Source: Escherichia coli
GTDB lineage: Bacteria > Pseudomonadota > Gammaproteobacteria > Enterobacterales > Enterobacteriaceae
Length of the DNA: 64,000 nt
Strand: one strand, 5' to 3'
Assembly: GCF_003018235.1 (NCBI RefSeq)
Contig: NZ_CP027437.1
Below, piece by piece: positions 52,428 through 53,828 of the stretch. Under the pieces are notes generated by a model that saw nothing but the letters and a program-made list of their open reading frames with translations, was not told where the DNA came from and did no database searches. Numbering within the stretch: the first letter of the stretch is position 1; the number at the start of each line of letters is the position of its first letter. The translations under genes were made by a program, and so were the position numbers.

Positions 52428-53828
52428 TTACAGTGGGTGCACATCATCGCCATCAATAGCGATTACGCCGTCACCTTCCAGCTTGTACAGCCAGCGCCGG
52501 AAATTTTTCATCTCATACCCCAGCTTTTTCATATCGTCGCGGAGAAGGGCGATAGTGCACGCCTCCCCGTGTGCTGTCCTCGTTCTGATGCACTGCCATA
52601 GCGCGGCGTGATTCTCCGTCTTGTTTCCGGCCTCCTCGATGCGCTCCAGTTCAACGGGTGGGCGCGGTTTATCCACAACCACCAGCGACGTGATTAACTC
52701 CCCGTCAGCGTCGGTAAAAAGCTCCACCACACGTAAATCGTATGCGGCCTCTTTCAGTTCCTCCGCGTCCTTCATTTTGGTGCAGGAGATAACCAGGGCT
52801 TCACAGTCCGCACCTTCACGGCGAATACGGTATTCAGCGTCCAGAGATGCACGAAATGCACTGGAACCACGCGCCCCTTTCGTCTCATCCTTGCCGGAAT
52901 GGTGAACCACCAGCACCGTGGCCCCTGTGCGTCGTTTCAGTTCGTCACATCCACGGATAAACGCCCCCATGTCACGGGAATCATTTTCATCATTGCCGCC
53001 AAAGCAACGCGCCAGCGTATCCAGAATAATCATGCGTACAGGTTTACCCGTTTCCCGCTCCACCTGGCTGGCTGCGATAACCATTTCATCAACATCAAGC
53101 GGGGCCGCCGGAAAAATGGGACGGTTTACCAGATACAGATTTTTCACCTGCTCACCGTGCACAACCTCCCAGGCTTTTACACGACGTGGAACGCCGATAC
53201 CGCCTTCACCAACCACATAGAGAACCGCACCATGTGCAACCCTGCGGCCTCCCCAGTAGCGACCTGTGGAAACGTGACACGCCCACGATCCGGCAAGGAA
53301 TGATTTATAGGAACCGCTCGCCCCGTATATGCTGCATAGCGATACCGCCGGAATAATTCCCTTAACCACGTAATCAAGTTGCGTGTCGTATCCGGCAGAA
53401 CCAATGCTCATCGGTAGTTTGGTTTTCCGCTGGTGGCTTTTTTCTTCCTCCTGCGCTTTACCGCGCTCCCGTTCCAGATATTCGCGCCAGTTCTCCCGCT
53501 TCTGGCTGTGCATCCCATCTGGGTAATAATTCGCATCCCGTACACCTGCTGCCGCCAGCTTTTGCGCTATGGCATTAATGCTCGATGGCTTGATATGGCC
53601 TGCCCTGTACAGACGGACGCAATAGCGGCCCTCGTCGATGATTCTCAGGTCTGGCAGTTCAGCCAGTTGATCATCAGCCAGCACAACGGGAGGCACATTA
53701 TCGCCAGCAAGTCGCCCGTCCTGCTCCTGCCACTGCTTCGCGTGTGCCCAGGCATCACTACCCGCAAAAATAATGACTTCTGTCATTTTGTCGTAAGGCT
53801 GTTTTCTTAAGTTCGGTGCGCTCTTCAT
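52428..53828 (-). CDS. P-loop NTPase, RepA/DnaB-like replication helicase family (YfjI-like), 466 aa
   Basis: Walker A GASGSYKS, Walker B-like MIILDTLAR, then VLVVHHSGKDETKGARGSSAF, typical of RecA-fold plasmid/phage replication helicases; the N-terminal domain of about 150 aa is unassigned. Confidence 0.6.
   Translation of the reverse strand: MKSAPNLRKQPYDKMTEVIIFAGSDAWAHAKQWQEQDGRLAGDNVPPVVLADDQLAELPDLRIIDEGRYCVRLYRAGHIKPSSINAIAQKLAAAGVRDANYYPDGMHSQKRENWREYLERERGKAQEEEKSHQRKTKLPMSIGSAGYDTQLDYVVKGIIPAVSLCSIYGASGSYKSFLAGSWACHVSTGRYWGGRRVAHGAVLYVVGEGGIGVPRRVKAWEVVHGEQVKNLYLVNRPIFPAAPLDVDEMVIAASQVERETGKPVRMIILDTLARCFGGNDENDSRDMGAFIRGCDELKRRTGATVLVVHHSGKDETKGARGSSAFRASLDAEYRIRREGADCEALVISCTKMKDAEELKEAAYDLRVVELFTDADGELITSLVVVDKPRPPVELERIEEAGNKTENHAALWQCIRTRTAHGEACTIALLRDDMKKLGYEMKNFRRWLYKLEGDGVIAIDGDDVHPL

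Follow-up and report, generated by a model that had tools for sequence, protein, structure and literature searches.

A putative Pri-Rep initiator-helicase and a downstream iteron array in an Escherichia coli phage satellite

The gene at positions 52428..53828 (minus strand) of the 64-kb stretch of E. coli DNA analyzed here (the window) probably encodes the self-loading initiator-helicase (“Pri-Rep”) of a Gram-negative phage-inducible chromosomal island (PICI) at tRNA-Pro(GGG), with the origin of the island directly behind it; the probability of this reading is put at roughly 80%. It builds on a directly observed domain map, iteron array, co-variation of iterons with the C-terminus of the protein, and distribution of the N-terminal domain. 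The replicon function is taken from the literature on relatives, while hexamer formation, self-loading, and the role of the N-terminal domain are what we infer. The gene call itself is routine: Gram-negative PICI Pri-Rep/ori replicons have been on record since 2018, and they are frequent in E. coli. What is modestly new is the three-module map, the iteron/C-terminus co-variation, and a “Pri” domain that lacks primase hallmarks and is a shuffled module apparently restricted to satellites. The protein also departs from the prototype, EcCICFT073, in having a RepA-type motor rather than one of the SF3 type.

The island and its replication gene

The gene is part of a small, unidirectional int-alpA-...-rep island at a tRNA, in which the genes for the integrase, AlpA-like regulator, Rep, PerC, and capsid are all on the minus strand. 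The island is a Gram-negative PICI-type phage satellite, with int-alpA-DUF4222-rep-PerC-capsid organization, integrated at tRNA-Pro(GGG). Its features are as follows.

47324..57664, minus strand: satellite island, ~10.3 kb (Pfam, PHROG, and the PGAP annotation of a 99.9% identical locus; boundaries approximate)
57650-57726: tRNA-Pro(ggg), neighbor of the island
56190-57449, minus strand: int, P4-type integrase (Pfam/PHROG)
55478-55684, minus strand: alpA-like regulator (Pfam/PHROG)
within the island, minus strand: Icd-like gene (Pfam/PHROG/PGAP)
53825..54121, minus strand: DUF4222 gene (PF13973, E = 8e-13), its stop codon overlapping the rep start (ATGA)
52428..53828, minus strand: probable Pri-Rep gene (466 aa), satellite replication initiator-helicase (ORF; AAA_25; phrog_2850; PGAP name “helicase RepA family protein”)
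52225..52427, minus strand: putative origin of replication, iterons and AT-rich spacer directly after the rep stop codon
51966-52226, minus strand: phrog_1231 gene (PHROG)
50981-51994, minus strand: second tyrosine recombinase (Pfam/PHROG)
50709-50984, minus strand: PerC homologue (Pfam/PHROG)
48170-50065, minus strand: ClpP-protease/major-capsid fusion (Pfam/PHROG)

The sequence GCACGAGAG is found at both approximate ends of the island (47324 and 57656), with arm-type repeats CGTATAAC[CT]AAA close by, at 47392-47417 and 57463-57519. A 95-nt repeat flanking the capsid module was compared with the left end of lambda cos, but the alignment was unconvincing. P4-like immunity RNAs (C4, isrK) were sought in the island by an Rfam scan, which gave no match to them at E ≤ 0.1.

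A near-identical copy (99.9% identity) is present in E. coli SCU-111, annotated as “helicase RepA family protein,” and related copies are found in 1346 of 5426 complete E. coli genomes, about a quarter. Reps with 60–77% identity to this one occur in a classical PICI at the same tRNA-Pro site (loci L002 and L003), in capsid-forming PICIs (L004 and L005), and in PICIs embedded within a prophage protease gene (L006 and L007), all of them syntenic with the island described here. The 4-nt overlap between DUF4222 and rep recurs in L002–L008 and in EcCICFT073, upstream of AAA_25, DUF927, and D5-type Pri-Reps. In each of these three Pri-Rep types, the ones checked, DUF4222 and the Pri-Rep gene are translationally coupled.

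The rep ORF in the ORF listing has an ATG start and encodes 466 aa, its translation beginning MKSAPNLRKQPYDK. The whole length of the protein is matched by phrog_2850, and its core also matches several helicase/primase PHROGs. Four segments can be distinguished.

53454..53828, minus strand: N-domain, aa 1-125, apparently satellite-restricted alpha/beta domain (AF2 model; family distribution)
53391..53453, minus strand: linker, aa 126-146, the tail of a long helix (115-135 in the model) and a segment of variable sequence and low confidence (model; alignment)
52665..53390, minus strand: RepA-type (AAA_25, RecA-fold) helicase core, aa 147-388 (Pfam; motifs)
52431..52631, minus strand: winged-helix-like C-terminal domain, aa ~400-466, proposed iteron reader (model; iteron co-variation)

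The linker is the most variable block of the alignment. The initial annotation, made from the sequence alone, had given the N-terminal part as a piece of about 150 aa matching no recognizable family. The ORF and the quoted KSHQRKTKLP (aa 130-139) are as described there, and there is no Pfam or NCBIfam match anywhere over aa 1-146; the size needs revision, to a domain of ~125 aa followed by a 20-aa helical linker. The C-terminal two thirds had been called a RecA-fold helicase domain of a replication ATPase. The AAA_25 match supports this for aa 147-~388, but a separate winged-helix-like module follows at aa ~400-466. Among families and PHROGs, the strongest hits are to replicative helicases and helicase-primases, in keeping with a RepA-type helicase; transport or conjugation ATPases, which would have spoken against this assignment, are not the top matches in Pfam, PHROG, or PDB.

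The AAA_25 family (PF13481) matches aa 147-315 at E = 5e-42, scoring 144 bits where the gathering cut-off is 27. The Walker A motif reads GASGSYKS (aa 169-176), D270 is the last residue of Walker B, and HHSGKD lies at aa 309-314; all three are invariant in 20 homologues. This form of Walker A is unusual, with Tyr before the Lys where Gly is normal, although still invariant in the family. The best PDB sequence match is RSF1010 RepA (1g8y), a weak one (E = 0.02) whose alignment spans Walker A, Walker B, and HH..K. A full-length AF2 model was shallow (20 sequences, pLDDT 65) and was rejected for use with the helicase core; because it was so poor, the helicase details given here rest on motif conservation. 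A comparison with YfjI-like proteins of CP4-type prophages, suggested at the outset, gave nothing: YfjI is a DUF3987 protein rather than AAA_25, the BLASTP E-value is 8, and the two proteins are unrelated. The sole feature they have in common is gene position after int-alpA.

Putative origin and candidate iteron reader

The ~200 bp following rep are best explained as the putative origin of the island. Iterons of the form AAAGTGAGGA(GT) start at 52427, 52414, 52342, 52259, and 52246, with an inverted copy at 52363-52375 and degenerate copies at 52277-52287, 52266-52276, and 52225-52235. Counting the degenerate copies, there are about ten iterons in about 200 bp, in two groups, one of them including the inverted copy; an AT-rich spacer (~52288-52331) lies between the two sets (52225-52287 and 52333-52427). 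The window has five exact copies of the 9-mer AAGTGAGGA, where 0.22 would be expected by chance, and every one falls in the 190 bp that follow the stop codon; a count of five was never reached in 100 shuffles. An origin near the gene had been suspected from the sequence, and the array of this predicted origin begins at the rep stop codon itself. A “mir-7578” match in the Rfam scan was set aside, as it corresponds to the inverted iterons.

Gram-negative PICI origins lie just 3' of pri-rep and consist of two iteron sets flanking an AT-rich region (PMC6092414); two iteron sets around an AT-rich segment are likewise found here, 3' of the gene. In EcCICFT073, the pri-rep-ori segment drives autonomous plasmid replication (PMC6092414). 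The same origin layout with altered iteron cores is seen in L002–L008 and in CFT073. Related loci have their iterons at the same distances from the stop codon (4, 17, 61 for the inverted copy, 89, ~172, and ~185), and the core itself varies: GTGAGGAG in the window, GTGAG[T/G] in L002, GTGGGGAG in L004, and GTGCGGCA in L006.

The C-terminal model has helices at 405-419, 426-435, and 443-452, then two strands, with pLDDT 86–93. The last ~65 residues are thus confidently predicted to form a winged-helix pattern, of three helices and a two-stranded wing. Its sequence changes with that of the iterons: a C-terminus 90% identical to this one goes with an iteron one base different, and a 48% identical one with the most divergent iteron, a comparison that covers four Rep variants and to which physical linkage contributes, since the C-terminal module adjoins the origin. 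In SaPI Reps, a C-terminal winged helix reads iterons located just after the gene (PMC9371898). From model, co-variation, and analogy, the C-terminal winged helix is proposed to be a better candidate for the origin reader than the N-domain.

A replication cycle can be sketched on the pattern of RSF1010 RepA, the SaPI Reps, and the anatomy described here. Once the island had been induced and excised, the C-terminal winged helix would bind the AAAGTGAGGA iterons, in two sets around the AT-rich spacer; the spacer would melt; and the RepA-type RecA-fold motor would form a ring on single-stranded DNA and unwind it, with host polymerases copying the island.

The N-terminal domain and alternative readings

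The AF2 model of the N-domain (pLDDT 92.7) is a compact alpha/beta structure in the order b-a-b-a-b-a-b-a, with the long helix last (strands 18-22, 48-50, 70-75, and 98-102; helices 26-40, 52-56, 81-93, and 115-135). The family is a small one, with 93 clusters (50% identity) in a search of 1.8 billion representatives. It is found in just five of 50,697 phage records, most of those satellite-sized, and its genes lie in int-alpA-type satellites in every context examined. The domain is fused to helicases of four families (AAA_25, DUF927, D5_N/DUF5906/Pox_D5, and VapE), and also occurs free-standing, as a 150-aa ORF overlapping the start of a DUF927 helicase gene in Pasteurellaceae-type satellites (L020). 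Within E. coli, its alleles are 42–89% identical. N-domain, helicase, and C-terminus recombine independently within the AAA_25 group: the Rep protein P0041, for example, matches the window protein at 43% identity in the first of these modules, 97% in the second, and 79% in the third. By its distribution, the N-domain appears to be an autonomous, satellite-restricted, shuffled module.

The DUF4222 protein was considered as its partner and rejected. Between the window and L008, identity is 87% for the N-domain but 40% for DUF4222; between L002 and CFT073, it is 48% for the N-domain but 91% for DUF4222. Because the two do not co-vary, the DUF4222 protein is not an obvious specific partner of the N-domain.

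In related helicases, the place of the N-domain is taken by a Zn-ribbon/TOPRIM primase, whose catalytic residues the N-domain does not have. It could be a non-catalytic adaptor, one that recruits host DnaG, for instance, and so links the helicase to priming or to assembly of the replisome. Such coupling to host priming or the replisome is favored, tentatively and at well under even odds, because the domain is portable across helicase classes and because the EcCICFT073 Pri-Rep works in the absence of phage. In a broader evolutionary version, which is conceivable if doubtful, the N-domain would be a satellite-specific module that has replaced an ancestral Zn-ribbon/TOPRIM primase, one that can be plugged onto four helicases (RecA-fold RepA; SF3-type D5, DUF927, and VapE) or serve as a separate subunit, with priming achieved either by capture of host DnaG or the replisome, or by an unrecognized minimal catalytic site.

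The domain might instead be a module for interaction with helper phage or host, with a regulatory or interference role unrelated to priming; it might, for instance, sense a replication protein of the helper phage or sequester it. Its near-confinement to satellites would suit such a role, as would its allelic diversity, which varies independently of the rest of the protein, as an interface facing changing partners would be expected to do. A related PICI reportedly helps its helper phage to replicate (PMC11773190). Against this, the EcCICFT073 Pri-Rep, which carries the domain, replicates a plasmid in phage-free DH5alpha (PMC6092414), so a helper partner is not required for function, and the DUF4222 protein encoded just upstream shows no co-variation with the domain. 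A helper- or host-interaction role is considered unlikely.

The initial annotation had suggested a primase-like domain, and the protein could in principle be a literal primase-helicase of the T7 gp4 or P4 alpha kind, with the N-domain an unorthodox minimal primase. It does occupy the position of the primase module in both of those proteins; E17 and E112 are near-invariant, and the invariant G23 and G77 could match the glycines of the TOPRIM EG and DxDxxG motifs; the gene is called pri in the literature (PMC6092414; PMC10111431); and the EcCICFT073 pri-rep-ori segment replicates with no other satellite gene (PMC6092414). The domain is only 125 aa long, however, and none of the searches supports the idea. 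Toprim families in Pfam matched none of 30 N-domain members at E ≤ 10; an NCBIfam search and a PDB profile search with the N-domain matched nothing; hhalign of the N-domain against T7 gp4, P4 alpha, and E. coli DnaG gave probabilities below 1%; and Foldseek of the model against PDB and BFVD returned nothing significant, with no primase in the PDB list. As for a zinc ribbon, Zn_Ribbon_Prim scores in both P4 alpha and T7 gp4 but has no match here, and the domain has no conserved Cys or His.

In the TOPRIM fold, strand 1 is followed by a conserved Glu and strand 3 by DxD. At the equivalent positions, as set from the secondary structure of the model rather than by residue-level structural alignment, strand 1 ends at A22 and strand 3 in an R/Y-type sequence (..VRLYRAG..); all 30 aligned members have Ala and Arg/Tyr-type residues there, and none has an acidic residue at the end of either strand. 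TOPRIM intermediates were also sought starting from the most divergent (Pasteurellaceae-type) N-domains, and none of the 29 proteins found has a Toprim annotation. A match to phrog_864, “DNA primase,” was discounted as evidence: it is not independent, N-domain proteins having already been named “DNA primase” by some sources, and that name has been given to a whole protein cluster (PMC10111431). A minimal primase thus looks improbable, and the “primase” label for the N-domain is not supported by its sequence; a TOPRIM-like fold is retained as a lead.

A sequence-specific origin-binding role for the N-domain, the other initial suggestion, is very unlikely, because N-domain identity does not track iteron type. 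Some initiators do bind DNA via N-terminal domains, and a long basic linker adjoins this one, but no tool result favors the idea, and a winged-helix domain sits at the opposite end of the protein. N-domains 87% identical to that of the window (L008; P0121, with GGGACAAC iterons) and about 67% identical (EcCICFT073, with CTGTCTACC iterons) go with iterons unrelated to those here, and the N-domains of P0041 and P0087 are 89% identical, yet their iteron cores differ. Finally, that the whole protein is a non-replicative P-loop ATPase of conjugation, transport, or defense is highly improbable: the breadth of the AAA_25 family and the weakness of the PDB match to RepA (E = 0.02) leave some room for it, but the named PHROG matches are all to helicase or primase families, gene position in the satellite replication zone is conserved, with an SSB adjoining in sister elements, and a cognate iteron array is present.

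If Rep C-termini and iterons change together across PICI, cfPICI, and helper-embedded PICI, as the variants compared here suggest, they may provide a simple predictor of replicon specificity and incompatibility groups. For the N-domain, a “primase” name without primase sequence hallmarks means that priming in Gram-negative PICIs is unexplained by current annotation. Should the domain prove to be a satellite-specific module standing in for a primase, the Gram-negative PICI “primase” would not be a conventional one, and how satellites prime DNA synthesis becomes a testable question.

Comparison with known systems

The closest studied relative is EcCICFT073 (PMC6092414), with which the island described here is syntenic, sharing the order int, alpA, Icd-like, DUF4222, pri-rep, ori, (SSB), PerC, capsid, except that it has a second recombinase where EcCICFT073 has SSB. 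Both have the ATGA overlap with DUF4222 and the same origin plan just 3' of the gene. Similarity to the experimentally studied EcCICFT073 Pri-Rep is confined to the N-domain, which is about 66–67% identical over aa 1-125 (E = 3e-52). Beyond aa 125 the proteins are unrelated: the motor is D5_N/DUF5906/Pox_D5 (SF3) in EcCICFT073 and RepA/AAA_25 RecA-fold here. The iterons are unrelated as well (CTGTCTACC vs. AAAGTGAGGA). Four allelic Pri-Rep variants are mentioned in the literature.

The motor is of the same ATPase family, AAA_25, as RSF1010 RepA (1g8y), with which Walker A, Walker B, and HH..K can be aligned, although similarity is weak (E = 0.02). RSF1010 RepA consists of the helicase alone (279 aa) and works alongside two other proteins, the initiator RepC and the primase RepB'. 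The helicase described here differs in having a putative DNA-binding domain of its own at the C-terminus, and the additional N-domain. T7 gp4 (cf. Twinkle) has a Zn ribbon, an N-terminal a+b subdomain, and a catalytic TOPRIM, signatures that the window protein does not have; gp4 in turn has no origin-binding winged helix.

Among satellite proteins, P4 alpha offers a parallel in overall plan: a single satellite-encoded polypeptide in which the helicase is combined with an N-terminal module and with origin binding at the C-terminus, and with cis-acting repeats (crr) directly downstream of the gene. Its parts are different (Zn_Ribbon_Prim, Toprim_3, and an SF3 D5-type helicase), and the N-domain has no sequence similarity to it. 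The SaPI Rep/PriRep proteins (PMC9371898) are self-loading AAA+ SF3/MCM-like 3'-5' helicases of Gram-positive hosts, with no sequence relationship detected to the protein described here. They resemble it in architecture, however, with a C-terminal winged helix and, immediately behind the gene, iterons that flank an AT-rich center, and SaPI Rep, too, has an N-terminal domain of unassigned function (PMC9371898).

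Replication module

The Walker A motif of Pri-Rep, the island's 466-aa replication protein, reads GASGSYKS (aa 169-176, window 53301-53324), a tyrosine replacing the usual glycine that precedes the lysine. The form G[AP]SGSYKS is invariant in the homologues (20/20). In L020, a Pasteurellaceae-type satellite locus found on many contigs, two adjacent genes are the split "pri" and "rep" counterpart of the fused Pri-Rep:

L020 6001-6453: free-standing N-domain ORF, 150 aa
L020 6450-8090: DUF927 helicase gene, its start overlapped by the N-domain ORF

At the putative origin, directly 3' of the rep gene, Rfam returned a "mir-7578" match (window 52353-52430; 30 bits vs. 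a gathering score of 60). It overlaps the inverted iterons and is an artefact of their hairpin potential.

A further reading frame is probably spurious:

54412-55473 (-): ORF of 353 aa in the ORF listing

PGAP places only small genes in this stretch, namely an Icd-like gene and, on the opposite strand, YlcI/YnfO and a hypothetical gene. An Rfam scan of the island at E<=0.1 gave no P4-type immunity RNA (C4, isrK).

Island ends

The sequence GCACGAGAG, common to 47324 and 57656, is the likely att core, its copy at 57656 lying within the 3' end of tRNA-Pro. Both island ends carry repeats of the form CGTATAAC[CT]AAA (47392-47417 and 57463-57519), in direct orientation at one and in both direct and inverted orientation at the other; these are probably arm-type sites for the integrase.

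Capsid module and second recombinase

The features considered here are:

48170-50065 (-): full-length fusion of a ClpP-like prohead protease and major capsid protein, 631 aa
50709-50984 (-): PerC-family regulator (PF06069, E=6.5e-39)
50981-51994 (-): tyrosine recombinase of 337 aa, the second one within the island (PF24624 Int_N and PF00589)

The protease-capsid fusion is the only virion gene of the island. Together with a small gene upstream, it is enclosed by a GC-rich direct repeat of ~95 nt (window 48054-48142 and 50603-50690; 84-85% identity), and this flanking arrangement suggests that the capsid module was gained as a cassette. The repeat was also considered as the left end of a lambda cos site; the alignment was unconvincing. 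In L006 and L007 a related satellite interrupts a prophage gene for such a protease, the helper-embedded PICI configuration.

PerC homologues from PICIs reportedly modulate the LEE pathogenicity island (PMC6092414, PMC11773190). Here the PerC gene and a phrog_1231 gene flank the second recombinase, whereas the sister PICIs L002, L004, L008 and EcCICFT073, the prototype Gram-negative PICI, carry an SSB gene at exactly the position that this recombinase occupies.
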